This document shows positions 4,137 through 50,714 of a DNA stretch of 64,000 bases, piece after piece. Position 1 is the first letter of the stretch. Each line of letters begins with the position of its first letter. Made by a program: the position numbers and the translations under genes. The notes beneath the pieces were generated by a model. The model was not told where the DNA came from. It did not search any database and saw only the letters and a program-made list of their open reading frames with translations. Source of the stretch: Armatimonadota bacterium. Its GTDB lineage: Bacteria; Armatimonadota; UBA5829; DTJY01. The stretch is from positions 105,541-169,540 of the forward strand of contig JARYMF010000007.1 of assembly GCA_029907255.1 (NCBI GenBank), read 5' to 3'.

Positions 4137-5321
4137 ATGGAATGTGAAACTGGTGAGAGCAATCTCGCTCAACTTAAATTATTTGCCAAGCGGGGCATAT
4201 GCGATCTCCGCCTGCTTGCATTTACGGTATTTTGTGTATCTTTTGGTTTTGGAGCATATTTTTCCACCTTCAACAACTTTGCCGTTGAGTCGCTCGGTTT
4301 GACCCCAATTCAACTAGGCAGACTCGAAGCACTTCGAGAAATGCCTGGTTTCCTAATGTTTGCCGTCGCAGCTCTAACAATGCGAGTGGCCGAACCTATT
4401 CTTGCTGGAATCGCGCTTTTATTATTGGCGGTTGGACTCGGGGCATACTATACAGTCGACAACGTTAATTCACTCCTTTTTTATTCGCTGATATGGAGCA
4501 TTGGGTTGCATGCATGGATGCCGCTTCAACCGTCAATGGCTCTAAGTCTGGCTGATGAGCATAGCAAAGGTAAGCGCCTTGGTCAGATGGGCGCAGTTGG
4601 GGCATTTGGTACAATTCTAGGAATGACGTTGGTTCAGCAGCTTGGCGGGCGAATAGGGTATCAGAACATTTTTATTATTGCTGGCATAGTTGTTGCGGCT
4701 GGAGCTTTAGCGGTTTCGTTCATTCGCAGGGACATCGGCCATGCGGAAAAGCCGAGATTTGTTTTTAAGCAACGATATTCCTTGTATTACCTTCTTGTTT
4801 TTCTCGAGGGCTGCCGGAAGCAAGTCTTCATCACATTTGCAATATTTGCCTTAGTGCGAAACTACGGCACACCAGTCAGCGTAGTTGCAACACTTATGAT
4901 AATCAACAATATAGTTAACCTTCTCCTAGCGCCTAGTGTTGGCCGTTTGATTGACAAAATCGGGGAGCGGTGGGTGTTAATGTTCTGTTACACTAGCTTG
5001 ATTCCCGTGTTTGTTGGTTATGCAACGATAAAGATTCCCGCGGTTCTTTATGTCCTTTATTGCCTTGACAATTTATTTTATTTGGGTAGCATTGGCTTGA
5101 ATACCTACCTTCATAAAATCGCAGAACCTGCTGACGTGATGCCAAGTCTGACAATGGGTGTTTCAGTAAATCATGCCGCAGCGGTGGCAGTGCCTTTAAT
5201 TGGTGGCACGCTTTGGTCAAAATTGGGTTATCAAGCTACCTTTTTTGGCGGCGCATTTGTTGTTGCGATTTCGGTGTTGGCAGTACTTAGGATGCGCATA
5301 CCTAAGATGGCCGACGGATAA
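4137..5321 (+). CDS. MFS-type membrane transporter
   Basis: 394 aa with about 12 hydrophobic segments by eye. The ATG directly follows the nitroreductase stop. Substrate is unknown. Confidence 0.65.
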   Translation: MECETGESNLAQLKLFAKRGICDLRLLAFTVFCVSFGFGAYFSTFNNFAVESLGLTPIQLGRLEALREMPGFLMFAVAALTMRVAEPILAGIALLLLAVGLGAYYTVDNVNSLLFYSLIWSIGLHAWMPLQPSMALSLADEHSKGKRLGQMGAVGAFGTILGMTLVQQLGGRIGYQNIFIIAGIVVAAGALAVSFIRRDIGHAEKPRFVFKQRYSLYYLLVFLEGCRKQVFITFAIFALVRNYGTPVSVVATLMIINNIVNLLLAPSVGRLIDKIGERWVLMFCYTSLIPVFVGYATIKIPAVLYVLYCLDNLFYLGSIGLNTYLHKIAEPADVMPSLTMGVSVNHAAAVAVPLIGGTLWSKLGYQATFFGGAFVVAISVLAVLRMRIPKMADG

Positions 5322-5586
5322 TGAGAAAAGGAAATAGAATTAAAGTATCTCAAAGCATTGAGCAACCGACTTTCTAAATATGTACAGCTATTTGACCTAA
5401 ACTTGCACTATTGTCCTGTTTGCCATGCAGATAAAACATCCTTTCTAGTTAACAGTGTTTGTTGAATTAAACGAATGTCTAGCCATTTGCATCTAAAATG
5501 CAGGACAACATCTTTTTCACGACTAACGTATGCTTAGTATTTGACCGCCTCTAAGATTGCTAGTCGGCATCTTGCCAAGGAGGATT

Positions 5587-8409
5587 ATGACATTGAGGTT
5601 ATTCTCACGATTCTTGGTGTTGGTTGCCTCGGTTGTATTATTTTGTCTCACGTGTGCTCTTGCATGGAGCGAAGAAGGTATTTCTTGGCAGGAACTTAAA
5701 GCAAAGCTCGCCGAACGCCAGAAAACCATGAAGACCATGGCCGATACAAATGCCTCCCCAGGGTTCTCACAGTTTAAAGGTAAGTATCTTCGACCGGAGT
5801 ATGCTTCTCAATATCGATCTTTTATAAAGCTGAATCCTCAAACTGGCCTCCTTGAGTATGAGGGAAAGGTAATAAGGCCATTCTTTACCGTCTATAGCCA
5901 GCCTAAACCTGGTGGTGGCTGGATATTAAATATCCCAGATTTAGACTTCGATCTTTTGGAGAAAGATTTCGCTCGAATGAAGCAAGCAGGCATCAATGTT
6001 CAGCCGAGATTTTGGAGCTGGTCGGAGTTGCTGAACCCCGATGGTACATGGCGAAAAGTCAATAAGCAGCCAAAGGGACGAGGTCTGCCTTACTTCAAGT
6101 ATGTTTTCCAAATTTATGATTACTTTCTTGACAGAGCACAAGCCCATGGACTCTATGTAAACATTGAGCCCTCATTTTACTGGGGTTTGGCACCAGAAGT
6201 TATACCGCCCGAATATCGAGGAAAGATACTCCTTTATGATGAGCTTTGGGATGCTTCAGTTGAAGCTTATTCCAAGATACTGAATTATTTTAGCCGTCGA
6301 ACTGTTATTGTTGCAGTGATGATTGGTGAGGAAGATTTGGTTTTCGACCATTGCTTAAGCGAACCAATGATGCTTGAGCGCTTCAAAAGATACCTAAGAA
6401 GGACCTATGGCACTATCTCGAACCTTCAGCGAGTTTGGCGTTGGGGCTATGATTATGATAATCCAAAATTAGAAGAACAGACGGTTGGCGGCAAAAAAGT
6501 ACTTTATCCAATATATCCCTTGGTATCCGGAAAATTCGATTCCTGGAAATCTTTTGACGATGTAAGATTGCCTTTGTTGGATTACTACCGCTCACCAGAT
6601 TCGCCGAATACTTTTATTCAAGATATGCCGACTTATCAAAGGAACCTCCTACAAGACCCAATTTGGATAGACTTCATGCAGATGAAGGAAGAGATACTGA
6701 TTGCGCGCTTAAATCAGCTTGCTGATGCACTGCGCAAGGCAGACCCAAATCATATTCTCTATTACTCGAATCCCTACGACTTTAATCCAGCTTGGCATTT
6801 TCTACACTGCTTTGACAGGGCACGGCTTCGGTTCGACGTGATTGGGGTTGGACAACATGACTCAAGTCTAGATCCCCCCGAAGTCCCTCAATGGGCGACT
6901 TGCAGGGAATATGTCCAGAATGTTGCGTCATATGGACCCTACATCTGTATTGAAAAAGGATTTCCGAGAGGTTTTGCATGCGGCGAAGGCGAGGGTGGTA
7001 GAACTCGCGATGGTACCGCAAAATACTATCCGTGGTGGTTGACGGATATCGTTGGAGGAGGCGGCGCATTCTTCCAAAGCTACCATTGGAACCACATTGC
7101 CGGTAGGTCTACTGAGAAACCAACGGATTATGATTCAAAAACACTCGATGCAATTCAGAATTTTCTAGCTGAGATAAAAAATGTTCCATTTAGTTTCAAT
7201 CGAAATGCCGAAGTGCTCATACTTCGCAATAAGCATGCAGCCTATGGGATGAGTGCAGGTTACGACTACGGCAACGCGCGTTACCTTGCTAGCATCCTCC
7301 ATCAGTTGCATATCCCCTTTGATATCTTGCCCGATTCAGACATAACCCCTGGTTCATTTGAAGAAGGGAAGGTCAATCTCAGTAAATATCGATTTATTTT
7401 TGTTCCATGCCAATACCAATTGCTTCCCAGTCGAACATGGCAAATGCTGTTTGATTGGTTAACTGACCCCCGCTATGCCGGACGGCGTGGTCTTTGTCTG
7501 GGATGGTTTGGCGATCTAGATTGCTATTTTAATCCAATAAAGCCGGAGGAGGTTCATCCTGCCTTTGGTGCCCTGACAGGAACGCATGGGTATAGTTCGA
7601 GGGTTTCAGCGTCGGGAAAGTTGTGCCTTAGGTATGCAAGATTTTTTGGCTCGGCGGCTCGAGGAGATGAACTTGAAATCTTGTTACCGCAAGACGCTGA
7701 AATTGGCTATTTTGACGCGAATAAAGTGAGCGCCGAACCAATAGTAACTTTGGGCGAAAACGAAAAAGCTGTCGTCGTCCGCAATGTGGTAAATGGCAAT
7801 TCAATATACACGTGCGGTTTTCCATTGGGCATCGCATATGACCCGGTATGGGGTGCGGAAAAGGAACAGACACCAAACAATGCCCTGCTATTGCTCTATC
7901 AGGGAATGATGAGCCTTGTTGATGTGAAGCCAACGCTCAGCGCGCCAGACAACCTGGGTGTATATGTCTCGGATGACAGGTCAGCAATTTTGCTAAAAGA
8001 GCGATTTGGCAGAAAAACCGAAGTTGTCCTTAAATTAAATGATACATCGGGCAATATATACCAAGGTACTACAACAGCATTCAGCCCAAATGGTGAAGCA
8101 GAGATTAGGGATTTTACTATCGAGCCATATGGGGTTAAAGTGCTTCGCAAAGTAGCAGCAGTTCGAGCGCCAGGCGTATCTATAGTCTGCAAGCCCACTT
8201 CTGAAGGTGGATTGGAATGTGAATTAATTGGCGTGGGAAAAGTTGAAGTTTTGTTCGAATTGAAACCAATGACAATTTATAGTGTTAGGGAAAACGGAGA
8301 GCTGTCTATGGTTTTTACTGCTGATGGTTTGGGACGTCAAGCTATCGCATTTAATCTCGGCAATGGCACAAAACCACTTCATGTTTCAGTCAAACCCAGC
8401 CAACGATAG
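5587..8409 (+). CDS. secreted glycoside-hydrolase-like protein (GH42/clan GH-A-like TIM barrel plus C-terminal beta domains)
   Basis: AAGGAGG precedes ATG 5587 and the N-terminus looks like a signal peptide (FLVLVASVVLFCLTCALAW). FARMKQAGINV...FWSWSELLNPDGTW resembles the GH42/GH5 N-terminal barrel. The family assignment is not verified. Confidence 0.5.
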   Translation: MTLRLFSRFLVLVASVVLFCLTCALAWSEEGISWQELKAKLAERQKTMKTMADTNASPGFSQFKGKYLRPEYASQYRSFIKLNPQTGLLEYEGKVIRPFFTVYSQPKPGGGWILNIPDLDFDLLEKDFARMKQAGINVQPRFWSWSELLNPDGTWRKVNKQPKGRGLPYFKYVFQIYDYFLDRAQAHGLYVNIEPSFYWGLAPEVIPPEYRGKILLYDELWDASVEAYSKILNYFSRRTVIVAVMIGEEDLVFDHCLSEPMMLERFKRYLRRTYGTISNLQRVWRWGYDYDNPKLEEQTVGGKKVLYPIYPLVSGKFDSWKSFDDVRLPLLDYYRSPDSPNTFIQDMPTYQRNLLQDPIWIDFMQMKEEILIARLNQLADALRKADPNHILYYSNPYDFNPAWHFLHCFDRARLRFDVIGVGQHDSSLDPPEVPQWATCREYVQNVASYGPYICIEKGFPRGFACGEGEGGRTRDGTAKYYPWWLTDIVGGGGAFFQSYHWNHIAGRSTEKPTDYDSKTLDAIQNFLAEIKNVPFSFNRNAEVLILRNKHAAYGMSAGYDYGNARYLASILHQLHIPFDILPDSDITPGSFEEGKVNLSKYRFIFVPCQYQLLPSRTWQMLFDWLTDPRYAGRRGLCLGWFGDLDCYFNPIKPEEVHPAFGALTGTHGYSSRVSASGKLCLRYARFFGSAARGDELEILLPQDAEIGYFDANKVSAEPIVTLGENEKAVVVRNVVNGNSIYTCGFPLGIAYDPVWGAEKEQTPNNALLLLYQGMMSLVDVKPTLSAPDNLGVYVSDDRSAILLKERFGRKTEVVLKLNDTSGNIYQGTTTAFSPNGEAEIRDFTIEPYGVKVLRKVAAVRAPGVSIVCKPTSEGGLECELIGVGKVEVLFELKPMTIYSVRENGELSMVFTADGLGRQAIAFNLGNGTKPLHVSVKPSQR

Positions 8410-25577: not shown

Positions 25578-25654
25578 GGCCCGTTCGTCTAGCGGTCTAG
25601 GATACGTGGTTCTCAGCCACGGGATCAGGGGTTCGAATCCCCTACGGGCTACCA
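25578..25654 (+). tRNA. tRNA-Glu (anticodon CUC), CCA encoded
   Basis: I folded the cloverleaf by hand. Acceptor stem GGCCCGT/ACGGGCT, D arm GTCT/GGAT, anticodon stem CGTGG/CCACG with loop TTCTCAG, and T arm AGGGG-TTCGAAT-CCCCT. Confidence 0.9.
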
Positions 25655-29564: not shown

Positions 29565-30455
29565 TTATTCCAGTTTGTGCTTTACAGCATTCCATAGCGA
29601 TTTGATATCGCTGGACGCAGGGCCGTTGTCATATTCGACAACGCTTTTACAAACTATCTGAGCCCGAGTGACTGCCTCGTCATAGCGAATTTCACCTAGG
29701 AAGCTTGTGTTCCGTTCGATACATCGTTCGCGGATCACCGCAGTCATTTCGGGATTGAGGTCACTTTTATTAATGCAGACTACTGTTGGAATCTTAAAAT
29801 AGGCGGCCAAATCAGCAACACGGTCCATGTCGTGTAGTCCAGATAGAGTCGGCTCCGTTACTATGAGTACCAAGCTTGCGCCGGTGGTGGAAGCTATGAC
29901 GGGGCAGCCGATGCCGGGCGGGCCATCGATTATGATTAGTTCGAGGCCGTTTTCTTCAGCGATTCTTTTTGCTTCTCTTCTGATTATCGTGACAAGCTTG
30001 CCGGAGTTCTCCTCGGCGAGCCCAAGCTTTGCGTGAACCATTGGGCCGTGTCTAGTTTCAGAGACGAACCATTCTCCGTTGATGCTTGGAAAGAAATTCA
30101 CAGCTTTGACGGGGCAGACGTAGACGCAGACTCCACAGCCTTCGCAAGCTATGGTATCAATCTGATAGGTCTTGCCGACGACGTCGTTTGGAGGGCCGTC
30201 GAAGCTAATAGCGTCAAATCGGCACATAGACGCGCACTTTCCACATCCTATGCATTTGTCGGCTAGGATTGACGCTTTCTTGCTACCGCTGAACTCCTCG
30301 CGGCGCACGATTTTGGGAGACAGCACTAGATGTAGGTCGGCGGCATCCACATCGCAGTCGGCAAGCACTTTGTTTTCTGCAAGAGCGGCGAACGAGGCGA
30401 CAACACTTGTTTTACCTGTTCCGCCCTTTCCGCTTATCACGACAAGCTCTTTCAC
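29565..30455 (-). CDS. MinD/ParA-type P-loop ATPase with an inserted 2x[4Fe-4S] ferredoxin domain
   Basis: The Walker A motif is ISGKGGTGKTS. Cluster motifs CIGCGKCASMC and CEGCGVCVYVCP lie between Walker A and the rest of the ATPase. Confidence 0.85.
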   Translation of the reverse strand: MKELVVISGKGGTGKTSVVASFAALAENKVLADCDVDAADLHLVLSPKIVRREEFSGSKKASILADKCIGCGKCASMCRFDAISFDGPPNDVVGKTYQIDTIACEGCGVCVYVCPVKAVNFFPSINGEWFVSETRHGPMVHAKLGLAEENSGKLVTIIRREAKRIAEENGLELIIIDGPPGIGCPVIASTTGASLVLIVTEPTLSGLHDMDRVADLAAYFKIPTVVCINKSDLNPEMTAVIRERCIERNTSFLGEIRYDEAVTRAQIVCKSVVEYDNGPASSDIKSLWNAVKHKLE

Positions 30456-30542
30456 GGATTCTTACCTTTCTTGTGTTTTTTTGTATCAGGTCCTGCGTAC
30501 ATAAAATATGGGGTTGCTGAATTAAGCCTAATTCCAGTCAAT

Positions 30543-31352
30543 TCATATGCACCAGGACATCCCAGCTTGGCCAATGGTAACTTGCGAGCCAAGATTGGAC
30601 CTGAGATACTGATATGCTTTCGCCCCTGTGCAGTGGCAGCAGGCTATCTGTCCTATATCCATGTTTTGCAGGAATACGGCGAGCGATTCCAGCCTGTCTT
30701 CATCTGCGTTGCCCAGATGAAATCCGCCTGCGAGTAGGTCAATACGCGTTACACCCGCCACATTCATTGCAGCGAGTACGTTGTTCTCGACTCCCCTGTG
30801 CGCACAGCCAACCAGCACGGCAAGCCTGCCGCCGTTTCGCACGATTAGACACTGTTCATCCTCAAAAGTGTCTTGCGTAAGTTCGTCATCGCCTGTTAGA
30901 AACCTGCTTTCGAATATGTGCGTTCCAGTAATTGGTGTAATCTCTCCACTCAGAATCACACCTGGCAGAACTTCGACCGCCGATTTGTTGAGCGCGAAAG
31001 CTGCTTTCCGCAGCACGACTTCCGCAGGCATTCCAATGTAACGCATCCCAACTGTTGATTGCGCGTACTTCGGTTGAAAACATGCAGGGTGTGCAAAGTA
31101 TGCTATCCCAGGCAATTCCTTCATTGCTCTAATCAGTCCGCCGGTATGATCGTAGTGCCCATGGCTGAGACCTATGGCTTTTATCGCTCCGGGCTCGCGT
31201 CCAAGAGCAATTAAGTTGTGTAGCCACGCGTCGGTCTGCCCAGTGTCGAACATGACTGCCCCATCGTTGGTTTCAACGAGAAAGCTCAGTCCGTGTTCCG
31301 ACTTTAGTCTGTCACTTGCTGCTTCGTTATCAACAAGGAGTGTTATTTTCAT
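30543..31352 (-). CDS. MBL-fold metallo-hydrolase
   Basis: LVDN...HGLSFLVE...LSHGHYDHTGGL motif. ATG 31352 overlaps the Mrp gene end by 23 nt. Confidence 0.75.
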   Translation of the reverse strand: MKITLLVDNEAASDRLKSEHGLSFLVETNDGAVMFDTGQTDAWLHNLIALGREPGAIKAIGLSHGHYDHTGGLIRAMKELPGIAYFAHPACFQPKYAQSTVGMRYIGMPAEVVLRKAAFALNKSAVEVLPGVILSGEITPITGTHIFESRFLTGDDELTQDTFEDEQCLIVRNGGRLAVLVGCAHRGVENNVLAAMNVAGVTRIDLLAGGFHLGNADEDRLESLAVFLQNMDIGQIACCHCTGAKAYQYLRSNLGSQVTIGQAGMSWCI

Positions 31353-32169
31353 CACGTGGTCCAGCTGTTTGCGCTTGTTTTATCGCCGTCAGCCGGCTTA
31401 TAATCAAATCAATTTTATCGGCAATAGGGTTTAACATGTGGTCTTCAATTGTCCCAGCATCGGAATGGGACGATATTTCTGGGTCAATCGGCAAGTCGAC
31501 CAGGTGAGGAATCCCCATATCGCGGGCGATATGTTCCCCATTAGAGTTTCCGAATGGGTAGTTGACACTGCCGCATTTTGGACACCTAAGCCATGCCATG
31601 TTTTGAACTAGCCCGAGAATAGGTGCGTTCATCTTTCGACACATATCCACTGCCTTCCGCACAACCATTGCGGCTAGTTCCTGTGGCGAGGTTACTATTA
31701 CCACGCTGTCCAGGGGAAGTGACTGCATTACGGTGAGAGGGACATCGGCCGTGCCGGGTGGGAGGTCTGCCAACAGATAGTCAAGCTTGCCCCAGAACAC
31801 ATCCTTCCAAAACTGCTTGACCGCATTTGAGATTAAAGGGCCGCGCCAAATCACGGCCTCATAGGGGCTGTCGAGCAACAGATTGATGGAAATAACTCTT
31901 ATTCCGGAGCTAGTCTTGACTGGGAATATGCCAAACTCATTTATCTCAGGCCTTTCAGCTATTCCGAACATTTTCGGAATGCTTGGGCCGGTAACGTCCG
32001 CGTCAAGTATCCCGACCTCGTGTCCAGCTTTTCTGAGAGCGCAGGCAAGCAGGCTGGTAACAAGCGATTTGCCTACGCCTCCTTTGCCGCTCATTACGCC
32101 TAGCACATTAGCAACCTCGTTCGATTGCTCGGCTAGCGTGAGATGGTCGGTGGTTCGTACATCCGCCAT
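31330..32169 (-). CDS. Mrp/NBP35/ApbC-type Fe-S cluster carrier ATPase
   Basis: GVMSGKGGVGKS Walker A and a downstream CPKCG motif. GGAGG lies 5 nt upstream of ATG 32169, which begins immediately after the radical-SAM stop (TAA at 32171-32173). Confidence 0.85.
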   Translation of the reverse strand: MADVRTTDHLTLAEQSNEVANVLGVMSGKGGVGKSLVTSLLACALRKAGHEVGILDADVTGPSIPKMFGIAERPEINEFGIFPVKTSSGIRVISINLLLDSPYEAVIWRGPLISNAVKQFWKDVFWGKLDYLLADLPPGTADVPLTVMQSLPLDSVVIVTSPQELAAMVVRKAVDMCRKMNAPILGLVQNMAWLRCPKCGSVNYPFGNSNGEHIARDMGIPHLVDLPIDPEISSHSDAGTIEDHMLNPIADKIDLIISRLTAIKQAQTAGPRDENNTPC

Positions 32170-32170
32170 T

Positions 32171-33124
32171 TTATCCTCCAATCACACAACGATAGTAAGG
32201 GTCAGTGTCCCCGATTTGTTCTATGAGTCCTTCTTGCATGAGATGTTGCAGATGCTTTGTAACCTCGTGAATATTTCGGCCTGAAGCAGTGACAATATCG
32301 TCTATGGTGCAAGGCCTTCTGGAGAGCATCCGCATTAGCTCGTCTCTGACCTCCTGCCATTGCCACCTATCAGCAGGCATTACCACTCCGCCTGCGATAA
32401 TCTCGACCGAGCCACCGAAGGTTTCACATGCTCTTCTAAGCGTCTCTGATGAGACGCGCTTGGCGTCTCCGGATTTTGATGGTCTTTCAACCGTGTTTAA
32501 CTGCAATTTGTCGGGACAGACCAGTCGGACAACTTCGTGCATCGCACGAAGTTCGGCATCTGAGTCATTGACTCCCTTGACTAGCATAATCTCCAGCCAG
32601 ATTTTGCCAGGGAACTCTTGTGCTGTTTGCACAAGACCTTCGGTCATTCTGGCGAAACTGATGCCGGGCGCAGGTCTATTTACTGCATGAAAAGTATGCT
32701 GAGTTCCAGCGTCCAAGGAAGGTAGCAAAACGTCTGCCATCGAAACTGCGTCACGTATTTCGACATTGTCGAGCAGCGAACCATTCGTAATCACAGCTAA
32801 TGGAATATTGGTGAGTTTCTTTATCGCCCGAATCATCTCGCCAAGATCAATGTTTAGCGTAGGTTCGCCGGAGCCTGCGAATGTGATGTAATCAGCGATT
32901 CCACCGTGTTGCACCCAATGCTCAATCTCTCTAATAACATCTGGTGCGTCGACAAGCCGTTCAGGCGTGGAAGTCAGTTTGGTGGTGCATCCGAGCTGAC
33001 AATAGATACAGTCGTAGCTACAGACTTTGTGCGGCACGATGTCTACCCCCAGCGACCGTCCAAGTCGCCTGGATGGCACTGGCCCATATAGGTATTTATA
33101 TTTTACAGGGGCTTTTGCGCTCAT
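32171..33124 (-). CDS. radical SAM enzyme with a C-terminal winged-helix-like extension
   Basis: CSYDCIYC (CxxxCxxC), GSGEPTL, and a C-terminal tail ...LSRRPCTIDDIVTASGRNIHEVTKHLQHLMQEG. The start is ATG 33124, and a longer ORF to 33208 is possible. Confidence 0.8.
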   Translation of the reverse strand: MSAKAPVKYKYLYGPVPSRRLGRSLGVDIVPHKVCSYDCIYCQLGCTTKLTSTPERLVDAPDVIREIEHWVQHGGIADYITFAGSGEPTLNIDLGEMIRAIKKLTNIPLAVITNGSLLDNVEIRDAVSMADVLLPSLDAGTQHTFHAVNRPAPGISFARMTEGLVQTAQEFPGKIWLEIMLVKGVNDSDAELRAMHEVVRLVCPDKLQLNTVERPSKSGDAKRVSSETLRRACETFGGSVEIIAGGVVMPADRWQWQEVRDELMRMLSRRPCTIDDIVTASGRNIHEVTKHLQHLMQEGLIEQIGDTDPYYRCVIGG

Positions 33125-33254
33125 TATGTCTCTGTCGGCCTTTCCTAATAGGTAATAGAAAACAACATGCGGGCGTTCTTTGCCGCTTTGAGCCTTTTGA
33201 AATCGCAATTAAAGCTACGCTGTCTCTACTTTTATCCTGCGAATCTTTCTTTTG

Positions 33255-33893
33255 TCAGTCTTCTTCTAGCTGTGCTTTCGAAAGAGCTTCAGCGATTGCC
33301 CTCTCATCTAAAACGCCAAACAGCTCATTGGCTGCCGTCTTCTTTCCTGAAGCAACCCACGCGCGTGTGATAGTGAACTCCTTGGTCTCAACACTATCGA
33401 ACGATGAGCGCAAATGCTGGTCGATGTCTTCGGTGGACATCTCGCCCTTTCGGTGTTTCCCCTTGCCTTGCATCTGATGGTGCAGTTCCATCAACTCAAA
33501 TCCCTTTGCATTGAACTCCACTATGAGTAGCCTTCCATTATCAGCTAGCACCCGTGTTATTTCGTCAAGCACACCGCTTGGATTGTCAATTTCATGGATG
33601 GCATTCACAAAAGTTATTGCGTGGAAACTGCCTTCATCGAACGGAAGCTTGTGTGCATCCAAGATTACAAGCGTGGGTTTATCGGCTAGACTGCCGAGTC
33701 GCTCCCTGGTTTTGTCCAATGCCTCTTGGTTGATGTCGCCTGATATCACCGAATATCCCCGCTTTAGAATCTGCAAGAGCATTCGGCCTGAGCCGGTGGC
33801 GACATCCAGGACCGTATCCCTAGTATCGAAGCTTGCAAGGTCAAGCGCCGCATCGTACTCGCTGACAAGCACAGCCTCCCGCTCGTACAGCAT
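33255..33893 (-). CDS. class I SAM-dependent methyltransferase
   Basis: VLDVATGSGRM (motif I) ...ISGDIN... pattern. ATG 33893 lies 4 nt after the MinD-ferredoxin stop. Confidence 0.8.
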   Translation of the reverse strand: MLYEREAVLVSEYDAALDLASFDTRDTVLDVATGSGRMLLQILKRGYSVISGDINQEALDKTRERLGSLADKPTLVILDAHKLPFDEGSFHAITFVNAIHEIDNPSGVLDEITRVLADNGRLLIVEFNAKGFELMELHHQMQGKGKHRKGEMSTEDIDQHLRSSFDSVETKEFTITRAWVASGKKTAANELFGVLDERAIAEALSKAQLEED

Positions 33894-33897
33894 CTTT

Positions 33898-34761
33898 TCA
33901 AGATTGGAGTTGCGCAATAGTAACACCTTTCAGCAGCGATTCGAACGCCGCGGTATATTCGGGCAGTGCCTCGATGATAAGTTTGCCTCGCGAGTAAGCT
34001 TCTGCAATTCGTTTGTCGTCAGGTATTTGCAAAAGCACCTCAATGGACTCGCTGGCGCAGTAGTCGAAAACGGCTTCGTCGCCAATATCGGCACGGTTTA
34101 CAACAACCCCAAATGGCAGCTTCAGTACCCTGAGCATCTCAACGGCCAGCTTCAAATCATTTAGGCCAAACGGTGTCGGCTCAGTAACAAGGAGCACATA
34201 ATTAGCTCCTCTCACTGATTGTATTACCGGGCAGGAAGTGCCGGGGGGAGCATCGATTATGTTCAAACCGCCGTCTGTTTTTTTCTTTCTGACTTCTCTT
34301 ATAAGAGGTGGTGACATCGCCTCGCCAATTCTGAGCTTCCCATGCACAAATTTAATTCCGTTCGCCGTTCCCTCTTCAACAACTCCTACTTCGCGGCCAG
34401 CCTCGGTTATTGCGCCTGTCGGACAGACCAGCACACAACCGCCACATCCATGGCATAGATTTGGAAATGTGAGGACAGTTTTGCCGAGTAGTGCTATCGC
34501 GCTGTACTGGCATATCTCCTTGCACTTTCCGCAAGCCGTACATTTGTCCTTATCCACAACGGGAACGGGAACAAAAACGGAGGTCGTTTTCTCAAGCATA
34601 GGCTTCAGGAATATGTGGCCGTTCGGTTCCTCAACGTCGCAGTCAAGGTAGCTGACGTCAAATCCCTGCATTTCCGCAACGCGCGCCAAATTAGTCGCTA
34701 TGGTTGTCTTGCCGGTGCCGCCTTTCCCGCTGGCCACCGCAATGGTAGTTGTATTTATCAC
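33898..34761 (-). CDS. MinD/ParA-type P-loop ATPase with an inserted 2x[4Fe-4S] ferredoxin domain (paralog)
   Basis: ASGKGGTGKTT Walker A, with CTACGKCKEIC and CHGCGGCVLVCP cluster motifs. GTG 34761 lies 2 nt after the upstream TAA. Confidence 0.85.
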   Translation of the reverse strand: MINTTTIAVASGKGGTGKTTIATNLARVAEMQGFDVSYLDCDVEEPNGHIFLKPMLEKTTSVFVPVPVVDKDKCTACGKCKEICQYSAIALLGKTVLTFPNLCHGCGGCVLVCPTGAITEAGREVGVVEEGTANGIKFVHGKLRIGEAMSPPLIREVRKKKTDGGLNIIDAPPGTSCPVIQSVRGANYVLLVTEPTPFGLNDLKLAVEMLRVLKLPFGVVVNRADIGDEAVFDYCASESIEVLLQIPDDKRIAEAYSRGKLIIEALPEYTAAFESLLKGVTIAQLQS

Positions 34762-47572: not shown

Positions 47573-48454
47573 TTATGTTTTTAGGAACTTTCTTATGGAC
47601 ATGAAGCTCCCTACAAGCCCTATGCAACAGCCTAGACCAACCATGCCGCCCAGAAGCTGAGATGGTTCGATGTTTCCTGGATAACGCTCCAATAGGGGCC
47701 ACATGCGAGTAACAACCTTGGTTACATAAAATGCTCCGCCCAATACAATGCCGCATGCAATGGCGGCGCCAATTGCTCCTAGGATTATTCCTTCAAGTAG
47801 AAAAGGTAGGCGAATGAACCAGTTGGTTGCCCCTACAAGCTGCATGATTCTTATTTCGCGCCGCCTAGCGAAAACAGTTAGGCGAATTGCATTGCTGATT
47901 ATAAATGCTGTTATTATCAAAAGCACGCCGCTAGCGGATGCACCTAATATCTCAACGAAGTTCGAAAACCGAACAATTTCTTTGGCTTCTTTTCTAGGTG
48001 CGAGAACCTCGTCTACGCCTTTCAATTGCGCTATCTCGTTAGCAACGGAAGAAGTGTGTTTTGCATTATCGAGCTTTATGATAAACTCATCGCCAAGACT
48101 GACGTTTGGAATGCCGGTTAAGTCAATGTAGCCCTTGTAACTTTGCTTAGCTTGTTCCCAAACCTGCGCTGCGGGTATGTGCGTAAATGCTTTTACGTGT
48201 TGCATTTGTGAAAGATAATCATGTACTTGGGCTATTTCCTGCGGGGTGGCGCGAAACTTCATAAAAACGCATATTTCTAGCTCCTCCGAAAGCGACTTGG
48301 CAACGCCGTTGAGCCAGAGCACAAGGAGCGCGAAGCCGCCAAGCACCGCGAGTGACAGGCTAATAGTAGTAACTGATGCTATAGACATTAAGCCGTTCCG
48401 CCAAATGCTTACAAATGCCTCGCGGACGGCAAACTCAAGACTTCGCAAGCTCAT
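47573..48454 (-). CDS. ftsX: cell-division ABC transporter permease-like protein FtsX
   Basis: 4-TM FtsX topology with a large periplasmic loop. ATG 48454 overlaps the ftsE end by 20 nt. Confidence 0.8.
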   Translation of the reverse strand: MSLRSLEFAVREAFVSIWRNGLMSIASVTTISLSLAVLGGFALLVLWLNGVAKSLSEELEICVFMKFRATPQEIAQVHDYLSQMQHVKAFTHIPAAQVWEQAKQSYKGYIDLTGIPNVSLGDEFIIKLDNAKHTSSVANEIAQLKGVDEVLAPRKEAKEIVRFSNFVEILGASASGVLLIITAFIISNAIRLTVFARRREIRIMQLVGATNWFIRLPFLLEGIILGAIGAAIACGIVLGGAFYVTKVVTRMWPLLERYPGNIEPSQLLGGMVGLGCCIGLVGSFMSIRKFLKT

Positions 48455-49127
48455 GATATGTGCCTTTTGCCTCGTCTCTAATGATTTCTCCCTTGTCGAG
48501 GGCAATCACCCGCTTCTTCATGTGGTCTACGATGTGTTTGTCATGGCTGGCAACTACGACGGTAGTGCCGCGCATATTTATACGCTCAAGAAGCCGGATG
48601 ATTTCCAAAGATGTTTCGGGGTCGAGATTGCCAGTAGGTTCATCTGCTAGGAGAATTGGAGGATTGTTTACCAGCGCCCTTGCGATTGCAATGCGCTGTT
48701 GCTCGCCGCCAGAGAGCTGGTCAGGATATGCATTTGCTCGGTCAAGGAGCCCGACCAAGTCGAGTACCTCAGCTACCCTCGTTTTAATCTCTTTTCGAGG
48801 TGCACCGGTTACGTATAAAGCAAAAGCTATATTCTCGCGTGCAGTTTTTCTTGGAAGCAGGCCGAAATCCTGAAATACAACGCCAATCCCTCTGCGAAGG
48901 CGCGCAATTGCATTGCCACGAAGCCTTTTGACATCCAAACCATTTACAATAGCTTTGCCGCTTGTGGCGACTTCTTCGCGATAAATTAGCTTAAGCAACG
49001 TGGACTTGCCGGTTCCAGTAGGGCCGACGATAAATACAAATTCGCCCTTTTCGATCCGCAAGCTTACGTCTCGAAGCGCTTGAATATTATTGGGGTAGAT
49101 TACCGATACGTTTCTAAACTCAATCAT
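48435..49127 (-). CDS. ftsE: cell-division ABC ATPase FtsE
   Basis: GPTGTGKST Walker A, LSGGEQQR signature and LLADEPTGNLD Walker B. I trimmed the ORF to ATG 49127 (MIEFRNVSVIY). Confidence 0.85.
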   Translation of the reverse strand: MIEFRNVSVIYPNNIQALRDVSLRIEKGEFVFIVGPTGTGKSTLLKLIYREEVATSGKAIVNGLDVKRLRGNAIARLRRGIGVVFQDFGLLPRKTARENIAFALYVTGAPRKEIKTRVAEVLDLVGLLDRANAYPDQLSGGEQQRIAIARALVNNPPILLADEPTGNLDPETSLEIIRLLERINMRGTTVVVASHDKHIVDHMKKRVIALDKGEIIRDEAKGTYHELAKS

Positions 49128-49156
49128 CTTCCGCACCGGCGGGGTTCTTTTGCGAA

Positions 49157-49185
49157 AGTATACCAGATGAACTCCGAGATTGCAA
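49157..49185 (-). promoter_or_regulatory. sigma70-like promoter of ftsEX
   Basis: On the minus strand, TTGCAA (49185-49180), a 17-nt spacer ending in TGG, then TATACT (49162-49157). Confidence 0.5.
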
Positions 49186-49284
49186 GTGAAATGGGCAGGG
49201 GTTGTTTTTGTGTTGTTAATAATTTCCAGCGGCGTTACATGGGTCGTTGAGGCGGGCGGTGCCCTGCCCACAGTGAAGGGTGAA

Positions 49285-49482
49285 TGTAGGGTTAGTGTAG
49301 GGTTGAAAGGTCAACCCTACATAAATTCACGGCGATTTTGAGCGTGAAAATGCGGTTAATGTAGGGTGTGTAGGGTTAAAACACCTCTAAACGCGGGGGA
49401 AGTGATATATATCTCCACAGAGATATATATCCTTTAAAAATGGATTCGACTGCAAAACCCTACATAACCCTACATCCCTACA
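49285..49482. repeat. symmetric array of TGTAGGGT / ACCCTACA octamers around a perfect 12-bp inverted repeat
   Basis: Forward octamers lie at 49285, 49296, 49360 and 49369. Reverse octamers lie at 49314, 49457 and 49467, with a 7/8 copy at 49476. There is an 11-bp hairpin at 49296-49321. The central inverted repeat GATATATATCTC-CACA-GAGATATATATC spans 49404-49431. Confidence 0.85.
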
Positions 49483-49574
49483 TACCTCAACCGATGATAA
49501 CCGCCAATCAGCTGTGCCTAGCGAGTGGGTTTGGTTGGGCGGCGATGTTCGACACGAGCTATGACGAGCTATGG

Positions 49575-50714
49575 CTAGGCTTTCACGTATAGCAGTGCCA
49601 CGTCGTCTTTTAAGTGCCCGTCGCACCATTTGTTGATTTCTTCAAGCAGTGAGTTCACAAATGCCGAGGGTTCTTCGTGTTTGTGGGATAAGGCAAATTC
49701 TTTGAGCCTGTCTCGCCCAAAAAAGCCGTATTTTCCTCTTGCCTCTGTAACGCCATCCGTGTAGAGCAGTAGACTGCCGCTTCTAAACGGTATTTTGCAT
49801 TCCTCGTATTTCTCGTGCTCGGCAATTCCAATAGCAGTTCCAGTGAGTGCTAATTCTTCGACTTTATCGTTAATTAAAAGCGGTGGTTCGTGCCCAGCTG
49901 TTACAAAGCGAATTGTGCCTTCGTTTAAATCTGCTATCCCGTAAAATAAGGTTATGAACGCCTCCTTGGATATTTGGTGGTAGACAGCGTTATTCAGGCT
50001 TTCCATGACAAAAGACGGCGATGGGTCTTGATAAGCATAAGCTCTTAGCGAGTATTTTGCCAATGCCGTATGCACAGCGGCTTCGACTCCTTTCCCCGAC
50101 ACGTCACCGATGGCTATTGCGACAATGTTGGGGGATGGCTTGAATACGTCATAGAAGTCTCCACCAATTGCGGCTTCTTCTAAAGCCGCCTTATATGCGC
50201 TGACAATGCGAAGTGAATCTGTCTTCTCCGGTATTTCCGAAAAGAAAGCCCTCTGAAGGGTTTCAGAGATTCGCCGTTCTCTCTCATACGCTTGTTTAAG
50301 TGCTTCTCTGGCTTCTACTAACGGCGTTATATTTTCGGTGGATGCTACTACACCAATAACTTTTCCTTCTTGGTCGCGGAGCGGTGCCGCGCTTAAAAGC
50401 AGGTAGTTTCGTTTGCCTGAGGGTGTTTCAATTACTAGCTCGTCATTGTAGACAGTTTCGCCTTTATTTAGCGCACGACTCATCGGAAGTTCGCTTACGA
50501 GATAAGGCCTGCCATCTGGATGCATTAGTTTATTTGCAACTGCATAAGCAGGTAGGGGCATTCCAATCTCTGGGGGGACTTGGAAGAACTCTTGAGCATG
50601 TTTGTTCATATATGTTACCCGTTGCTCAGGTCCTTCGACGATAATTATTCCCGATGGAATTGTGTCAAGAACGGTCTGCAGGCGAGTCCTGCTTTCCATG
50701 GTCTCTTCGGTCAT
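49575..50714 (-). CDS. PAS-domain PP2C/SpoIIE-family serine phosphatase (RsbU-like)
   Basis: N-terminal PAS domain (LDTIPSGIIIVEG...) and a C-terminal GGDFYDV...GDVSGKG...YTDGVTEA PP2C pattern. Confidence 0.8.
   Translation of the reverse strand: MTEETMESRTRLQTVLDTIPSGIIIVEGPEQRVTYMNKHAQEFFQVPPEIGMPLPAYAVANKLMHPDGRPYLVSELPMSRALNKGETVYNDELVIETPSGKRNYLLLSAAPLRDQEGKVIGVVASTENITPLVEAREALKQAYERERRISETLQRAFFSEIPEKTDSLRIVSAYKAALEEAAIGGDFYDVFKPSPNIVAIAIGDVSGKGVEAAVHTALAKYSLRAYAYQDPSPSFVMESLNNAVYHQISKEAFITLFYGIADLNEGTIRFVTAGHEPPLLINDKVEELALTGTAIGIAEHEKYEECKIPFRSGSLLLYTDGVTEARGKYGFFGRDRLKEFALSHKHEEPSAFVNSLLEEINKWCDGHLKDDVALLYVKA

Follow-up and report, generated by a model that had tools for sequence, protein, structure and literature searches.

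The window analysed here is a 64,000-nucleotide (64-kb) stretch of contig JARYMF010000007.1 from an Armatimonadota bacterium (assembly GCA_029907255.1, positions 105,541–169,540, forward strand). Between ftsE and a PAS-SpoIIE (PP2C) phosphatase gene, it carries an array of short repeats built on the octamer TGTAGGGT and its complement ACCCTACA. Similarity to arrays in viral contigs suggests that this array is an iteron-type replication-origin module, probably stranded among host genes without the helicase that would use it. The original prediction, made from the sequence alone, had described the array and proposed a mobile element, a protein-binding array, a partition-like site or a structured element; the flanking genes (PAS-PP2C and ftsEX) are as it stated. 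The locus comprises the following features:

49229–49515, no strand: repeated unit, homologous to a second copy with other flanks; left border at 49225–49229, right border at about 49515.
49274–49281, plus strand: degenerate first iteron TGAAGGGT, a perfect TGTAGGGT in the second copy (version B, described below).
49285–49321: proximal module '+ + -', with iterons at 49285 (+), 49296 (+) and 49314 (-), the last two forming the 11-bp hairpin.
49360–49376, plus strand: left iteron pair of the putative core origin, starting at 49360 and 49369, 9 bp apart.
49377–49456: AT-rich spacer and presumed melting site, holding the 12-bp palindrome of 49404–49431.
49457–49482, minus strand: right iteron set (49457, 49467 and a 7/8 copy at 49475), facing the left set.
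49128–49216, minus strand: ftsE upstream region with a promoter-like site, common to a strain with CRISPR-Cas9 (clustered regularly interspaced short palindromic repeats) at this locus.
48435–49127, minus strand: ftsE (ABC ATPase), host flank, followed by ftsX, an M23 peptidase gene and two S41 peptidase genes.
49575–50714, minus strand: PAS-SpoIIE (PP2C) phosphatase gene, host flank, its stop codon 92 bp from the last octamer.

Exact copies of the octamer stand on the plus strand at 49285, 49296, 49360 and 49369 and on the minus strand, as ACCCTACA, at 49314, 49457 and 49467, in agreement with the four forward and three reverse copies first counted. The single 7/8 copy of that count (TGTAGGGA, minus strand) is placed at 49475–49482, and an additional one missing from it (TGAAGGGT, plus strand) occupies 49274–49281; in total, seven exact and two 7/8 copies were found, all within 49274–49482. 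Neighbouring octamers on the same strand start 11, 9, 10 and 8–9 bp apart, consistent with the proposed spacing of about one helical turn. Both hairpins described earlier are perfect, with 100% complementarity: the copies at 49296 and 49314 form an 11-bp stem (49296–49306/49311–49321, TGTAGGGTTGA-AAGG-TCAACCCTACA), and the 12-bp AT-rich inverted repeat pairs 49404–49415 with 49420–49431. The proximal module is separated from the left iteron pair by 45 bp, and the spacer between the opposed sets measures 82 nt with 64% AT, against 53% for the whole window. A strong single-strand fold is predicted for the array (z = -8.1), and self-alignment of the unit, in which long terminal inverted repeats were sought, revealed weak extended symmetry beyond the octamers. 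The sole sigma-70-like site, TTGCAA-17-TATACT on the minus strand at 49185–49157 (TTGCAA 49185–49180, TATACT 49162–49157), lies about 90–100 bp from the first octamer, so that the reported position of the array between this promoter and the PP2C stop codon is accurate.

The possibility that the octamer is merely an over-represented word was assessed by counting. Besides the seven exact copies in the array, one occurs elsewhere in the window (6936, minus strand), and dinucleotide-preserving shuffles yielded 0.94 copies per 64-kb window with a maximum of 4. Given that about 0.003 copies are expected by chance in 200 bp, the seven observed are far beyond chance, and the array is a real, non-random feature. 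The isolated copy (6936–6943) lies inside a 950-aa open reading frame (ORF) at 5557–8409 and is consistent with chance.

Evidence on the nature of the array comes from viral contigs. Scanning IMG/VR for two TGTAGGGT copies 1–3 bases apart gave at least 115 loci, and all counts of viral arrays given here refer to the loci so listed. At least four copies in both orientations were present in 49 of the 115. Dozens of otherwise unrelated viral contigs share the same octamer, the 9–11 bp spacing, the opposed sets and an AT-rich spacer of about 80–90 bp, in the common order of direct copies, spacer and inverted copies. Among 47 non-identical viral arrays, same-strand spacing ranged from 8 to 12 bp with a mode of 9 bp (63 cases), followed by 10 bp (23) and 11 bp (19); convergent gaps were bimodal, at 8–14 nt and 52–105 nt. 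The window fits both classes, with a short gap of 12 nt in the hairpin pair and a long gap of 82 nt. The long spacer of the viral arrays averages 67% AT against 55% in their flanks, a difference close to that in the window (64% against 53%). The composition and inter-octamer sequence of the viral arrays are unrelated to the window and among themselves. Conserved octamers within unrelated intervening sequence appear to be the mark of binding-site design rather than of copies of one mobile sequence.

The viral arrays also have a recurrent neighbour. Clustering of ORFs within 3 kb of the arrays revealed one dominant family, present at 25 loci at a median distance of 10 bp, which Pfam assigns to D5_N, DUF5906 and Pox_D5 (primase-helicase). 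A cognate transposase with the same ends had been suggested as a check on the mobile-element view; the gene that recurs beside the repeats is this helicase, not a transposase. By profile search, a D5_N/DUF5906/Pox_D5 gene was found at 48 of the 115 listed loci, and the nearest tandem octamers lay within 500 bp past its 3' end in 45 of these 48 and within 150 bp in 39. When the helicase gene was set upstream, the first octamer had coding-strand orientation ('+') in 26 of 28 non-redundant arrays. Four viral loci (L035, L059, L092 and L116) read '++.-_47-51_+(+)_89-96_--', closely resembling the window's '++.-_45_++_89_---', and in all four the '++.-' module adjoins the 3' end of the helicase gene. 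Furthermore, the last 110 residues fall into a single BLAST cluster for 38 of 45 helicases, which is consistent with a common DNA-binding domain.

The octamer extends beyond tailed phages. Arrays of TGTAGGGT were also observed in virophage-like contigs (L015, L036, L062, L091, L058 and L075), next to genes for Sputnik-type major and minor capsid proteins; two more contigs with arrays bear the label of giant-virus metagenome-assembled genomes (L057 and L074). One iteron word is therefore common to tailed phages and eukaryotic-virus elements. The virophage arrays have no Pfam-recognisable helicase alongside; the adjoining ORFs of 815–864 aa have no Pfam match. In two further contigs (L009:2540–2774 and L046:10747–10980), the octamer array enters the start of a tyrosine integrase gene and continues as the longer repeat GTAAAAAGTTTGTGCAAATGCCTACACTCCCTACACC, which may double as arm-type sites of the integrase. 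A further metagenome scan returned only two contigs, both unrelated to the window (L121:960–1625 and L122:7450–7560, JGI), in which '+ + -' TGTAGGGT modules stand at the inner ends of inverted repeats of about 60 nt that bracket a segment of about 540 bp with four GAACATATGTTC palindromes. This segment looks invertible or otherwise recombining and is unrelated to the host of the window.

Array-adjacent helicases resemble initiators whose origins have been characterised. They match SaPI5 PriRep (PDB 7OLA/7OM0; E 1.8e-42 and 7.8e-18) and are 46–53% identical to the primases of Listeria phages PSA and B025 and Lactobacillus phage A2; between the A2 primase and the helicase of locus L117, identity is 45.8%. 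In the A2 record (GenBank AJ251789), the rep_origin is annotated as overlapping the 3' end of the primase gene, where direct copies of ACGGGAGGAT precede a 'tatatatata' centre that is followed by inverted repeats; in PSA, the equivalent place carries GGTGGATAGTT repeats. The annotated 'type 1' repeats of satellite P4 are octamers, GGTGAACA, 9–11 bp apart in both ori and crr, with crr directly 3' of the alpha gene. The winged-helix domain of P4 alpha binds these repeats, two hexamers assemble on the opposed sets, and the AT-rich spacer is melted. In staphylococcal pathogenicity islands (SaPIs), the C-terminal winged-helix domain of Rep recognises the iterons, 6–12 of which directly follow the rep gene to make up the ori; its centre is AT-rich, and each side has two or more iterons, the two sides being opposed in direction (PMC9371898). 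As with P4 alpha, two Rep hexamers assemble on these opposed sets, and the AT-rich stretch between them is melted.

In sequence, the window array shows every hallmark of this kind of origin. The SaPI ori shares with the window short iterons about one helical turn apart, the AT-rich centre and at least two opposed iterons per side, and it lies immediately 3' of rep, as do the viral relatives of the window array; however, its iteron is a penta- or hexamer rather than the octamer TGTAGGGT, and the window has no rep beside the array and no island genes (integrase, stl/str, packaging) around it. P4 likewise has octamer iterons 9–11 bp apart in both orientations. Its replicon carries two arrays, crr 3' of alpha and ori apart from the gene, but its word is GGTGAACA/TGTTCACC, and both arrays lie inside the 11.6-kb element, whereas the window array stands between host genes. 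As in the window-type viral arrays, the A2 origin occupies the 3' end of a P4-family primase gene homologous to the array-adjacent helicases, yet its repeat word is ACGGGAGGAT and it lies within a complete phage genome. A literature search for the octamer itself returned primers and unrelated matches only.

Because its word, spacing and layout match the helicase-linked viral arrays, the window array is read as an iteron-type origin. Repeats about one helical turn apart, opposed sets with at least two copies per side and an AT-rich centre are all present, the module distances agree with those of the viral arrays, and the A2 origin and the P4 ori and crr share the design with other repeat words, which supports the iteron protein-binding array among the explanations first listed. 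We assign a probability of roughly three in four to its being an origin module of the kind used by superfamily 3 (SF3) self-loading primase-helicases, represented by SaPI Rep/PriRep, P4 alpha and the A2 and PSA primases. It would then be a stray or captured origin in the chromosome of a hot-spring bacterium, not a transposon or promoter element. As no initiator gene lies alongside, the array is regarded as an orphan of the SaPI/P4/A2 kind, not a working origin. It appears complete at its gene-proximal end and oriented as if a helicase gene had once stood to the left on the plus strand; from the polarity of the viral examples, the cognate gene would have lain where the ftsE promoter now is. The array may thus derive from a mobile replicon of which the rest was deleted, or from a fragment that was captured. 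In such a replicon, the winged-helix C-terminal domain of the helicase would bind the short repeats, and two hexamers would load on the opposed iteron sets across the AT-rich spacer and melt it. With no helicase gene beside it, the array could act only in trans: presumably inert by itself, it would be bound, and perhaps fired, only when a helicase of the same specificity is supplied, for example from the second-copy element. A hint of the lost gene may persist at 49229–49284, where the frame-3 peptide is the best of six frames against the helicase C-terminal-domain profile, at an E value of about 1. Its stop codon would be a TAG located within the first iteron, a position also seen in L034, L035 and L090, and the segment could represent the last 18 or so codons of a helicase gene.

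Further versions of the array were recovered from hot-spring metagenomes. A Logan contig with an identical PP2C gene stops inside the array. In run X1, the window version lies between an ftsE contig (27.5x) and a PP2C contig (24.7x), and a second version (version B), about 90% identical to the window unit and with unrelated flanks on both sides, stands at the end of a 9341-nt contig (26.7x). Nine of 78 positions differ in the left part (the 9341-nt contig aligned to 49229–49306), six substitutions and four gaps were found in the centre, and 3 of 51 positions differ in the right part (a 166-nt contig aligned to 49465–49515); the sequence becomes unrelated past the left part and diverges past the right. 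Neither the ftsE nor the PP2C contig reaches twice this depth, from which we infer that version B represents either a second locus or a replicon of similar abundance, not an allele. All 16 mapped differences that separate the X1 versions lie outside the octamers, and in version B G>A at 49273 and A>T at 49276 turn the degenerate 49274 copy into a perfect TGTAGGGT. Runs X4 and X7 contain a homologue of version B with the same left flank family, its match beginning at 49225; in X4 it stands at the end of a 7594-nt contig. In this homologue, all five covered octamers become TGAAGGGT (T>A at 49287, 49298, 49362 and 49371; A>T at 49319), and the matching right half reads ACCCTTCA. Since independent drift would not alter every repeat identically, this concerted change points to selection on binding specificity or to gene conversion. 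Additionally, in a contig from run X5 the array is linked to the ftsE promoter, as it is in the window, with 15 differences in 49217–49282 and none in 49283–49382. Taken at the sequence level, the patterns in X1, X4/X7 and X5 may be signs of selection on the octamer sites, and the intact iterons, conserved in two diverged populations, would argue for use. An allele found in X1, X2 and X3 has another sequence in place of the AT-rich palindrome, which is therefore better described as an easily melted region than as a specific hairpin.

The site also varies in content between close strains, as the suggested comparison of the intergenic region in relatives revealed. A Logan contig of run X4 (L002, SRR16588181) encodes an identical FtsE, and its homology to the window ends at 49216: it keeps the first 90 bp or so upstream of ftsE, followed by a tracrRNA-like (trans-activating CRISPR RNA) anti-repeat, cas9, cas1, cas2 and the start of a CRISPR array. 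Given that 49128–49216 is shared with this strain, it is host sequence outside the element. The type II CRISPR-Cas locus (L002:95–4800) is compact and lies directly upstream of ftsE, with a 1054-aa Cas9, Cas1, Cas2, the anti-repeat at about 4515–4545 and a CRISPR repeat (...GGTTCTCCGGTATGCTATAAT) that begins at the contig end. The PP2C contig of X4 reaches only 49420, without mismatches, and no window-type left half of the array was present in that run. Just beyond the PP2C stop codon, the window carries a perfect 10-bp tandem duplication of ACGAGCTATG (two copies, 49554–49573); the X4 population lacks 8 + 2 bases of it, so this duplication is polymorphic. A genome-collection scan for the window-specific 25-mer GAATGWAGGGTTAGTGWAGGGTTGA gave no match, a genome-collection search found no relatives of the PP2C protein, and the first metagenome scan for window-specific sequence returned nothing.

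Several findings weigh against reading the array as a stranded origin. The window contains no D5-like helicase (hmmsearch and phmmer with the helicase profile, six-frame translation) and no helicase C-terminal domain (hmmsearch with the C-terminal-domain profile, six-frame translation). Whereas characterised origins of this kind lie immediately downstream of the initiator gene or in the same element, the neighbours here are ftsEX and the PP2C gene, and to a distance of about 10 kb in both directions the genes are ordinary chromosomal genes of the host. Protein searches with the translated 30-nt flanks of the second copy (five of six frames, one minus-strand frame omitted) found nothing. Among the viral arrays, 22 of 49 had no D5-like helicase in the fetched stretch, and some had an integrase, capsid or terminase gene as neighbour; helicase 3' ends are thus not the only setting of the octamer array. 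Finally, the CRISPR-Cas9 sister strain appears to keep the right half only, from 49420 onward. With the left half replaced there, the array is not required for ftsEX expression or viability, and this half-deleted state would argue that it is dispensable.

The stretch by tRNA-Glu (25.6–35 kb) yielded, by Pfam, metabolic and Fe-S proteins or no match, and no mobile-element genes. The ftsE contig of run X1 (23,677 nt) ends at about 25630 inside tRNA-Glu(CUC) (25578–25654), and the next 3 kb or so (25.6–28.8 kb) contain short ORFs only, without Pfam match; the tRNA gene may thus mark a small island that varies between strains. The minus-strand genes at 29565–34761, of somewhat higher GC content than the rest of the window, encode two CbiA/ParA-fold 4Fe-4S proteins, a NUBPL/Mrp-type ATPase, a radical-SAM protein with a TrmB-like tail, a methyltransferase and a metallo-beta-lactamase-fold protein.

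Among the alternatives, the one that survives best builds on the origin reading: the array would be a functional chromosomal titration or decoy site, kept by the host to sequester the initiator helicase of a TGTAGGGT-iteron replicon, whether invading or resident. On this account, when phages or satellites with a TGTAGGGT origin enter the cell, their primase-helicase would be captured or mis-fired by the single chromosomal array, or a resident element would be kept in check by it, and the switch of all iterons to TGAAGGGT elsewhere would be the replicon's escape. The idea resembles engineered phage-origin resistance (Per), inhibition by lambda ori iterons and plasmid control of the incA type. 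Phage origins supplied in trans reportedly block phage replication in dairy lactic acid bacteria. With lambda ori iterons on a plasmid, replication of lambda is blocked (PMC3349717). In these cases, as in the window, an origin is present in the host cell apart from its initiator gene; however, they are laboratory constructs on multicopy plasmids, whereas the window array is a natural, single-copy chromosomal site. The iterons have stayed intact and conserved while the flanks diverged, the same site holds a CRISPR-Cas9 locus in the sister strain, and X1 also contains the second copy, which is replicon-like and has identical iterons, all of which would fit a decoy. Nevertheless, half of the array is lost in the CRISPR strain, and viral-contig scans for three element-specific sequences were all empty, yielding no phage of this host that carries such iterons. 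We consider it unlikely that the host keeps the orphan origin as a natural site of decoy or incompatibility within a defence hot-spot that sister strains fill with CRISPR-Cas9.

The original prediction favoured no single explanation and included a non-autonomous transposon resembling a miniature inverted-repeat transposable element (MITE), in which the octamers would be transposase sites at the ends (5'-TGT...ACA-3') of an element moved in trans. The unit does occur at least once more in the same metagenome, besides its one copy in the window, and this second copy is about 90% identical, has other flanks and is present at similar depth. Its homology borders are fairly sharp (49225–49229 and about 49515), the outermost octamers read TGT...ACA, and assemblies break inside the array. 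However, no direct repeat, and hence no target-site duplication, was seen at the borders of either copy, which are known to within a few bases (flanks aatttcca / gcctagcg and GAATACGG / AATCAGCA), and no transposase lies in the window. The homologous unit runs 56 bp and 33 bp past the outermost exact octamers, which are therefore not at its termini. The viral arrays, moreover, hold a fixed place and polarity behind helicase genes with unrelated inter-octamer sequence, as multi-site terminal repeats of one transposon would not lead one to expect. A MITE is consequently improbable.

A host regulatory element bound by a host transcription factor, whether an ftsEX operator array or a PP2C terminator or attenuator, is less probable again. 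Its place between genes, ahead of the promoter-like site of ftsE and shortly after the end of the PP2C gene, and the strong predicted fold are what such an element might show, but no terminator-like site was found within the array, and word and layout recur in viruses of unrelated hosts. The sister strain with identical FtsE has cas9 beyond 49216, so that ftsEX evidently manages without the array and the suggested link to its promoter is doubtful.

The least probable explanations are a structured RNA, a repetitive extragenic palindromic (REP) element, a partition site (parS) or a chromosomal origin (oriC): the strong fold and the helical-turn spacing would suit them, and TGTAGGGT distantly resembles the Thermotoga DnaA box, but no Rfam match was obtained at the gathering score or at E <= 1, the octamer is invariant in sequence across contigs and not merely in pairing, the 64-kb window holds a single cluster and one isolated in-gene octamer where dispersed REP-type copies might be sought, no parAB or dnaA/dnaN gene is annotated within about 10 kb on either side (the ParA-fold proteins at 29.5–34.8 kb are NUBPL/Mrp-type Fe-S proteins), the cumulative GC skew displays small local dips that follow gene orientation and no switch, and the absence of the left half from the CRISPR-Cas9 sister strain means that the array is not essential.

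These findings bear first on annotation, given that an array which resembles a transposon or regulatory element is probably a replication-origin module marked by TGTAGGGT. The octamer and its spacing rules may offer a means of finding origins in a large group of phages, satellites and virophage-like elements with D5/P4-type primase-helicases, most of which have no mapped origin. The site itself varies among close strains, in which the array is intact, reduced to one half alongside CRISPR-Cas9, or present as alleles whose centre differs, and the all-at-once change to TGAAGGGT would be a natural example of an iteron-specificity switch. If the array is still bound in trans, it would offer a simple natural case of an origin serving as a titration or decoy site.

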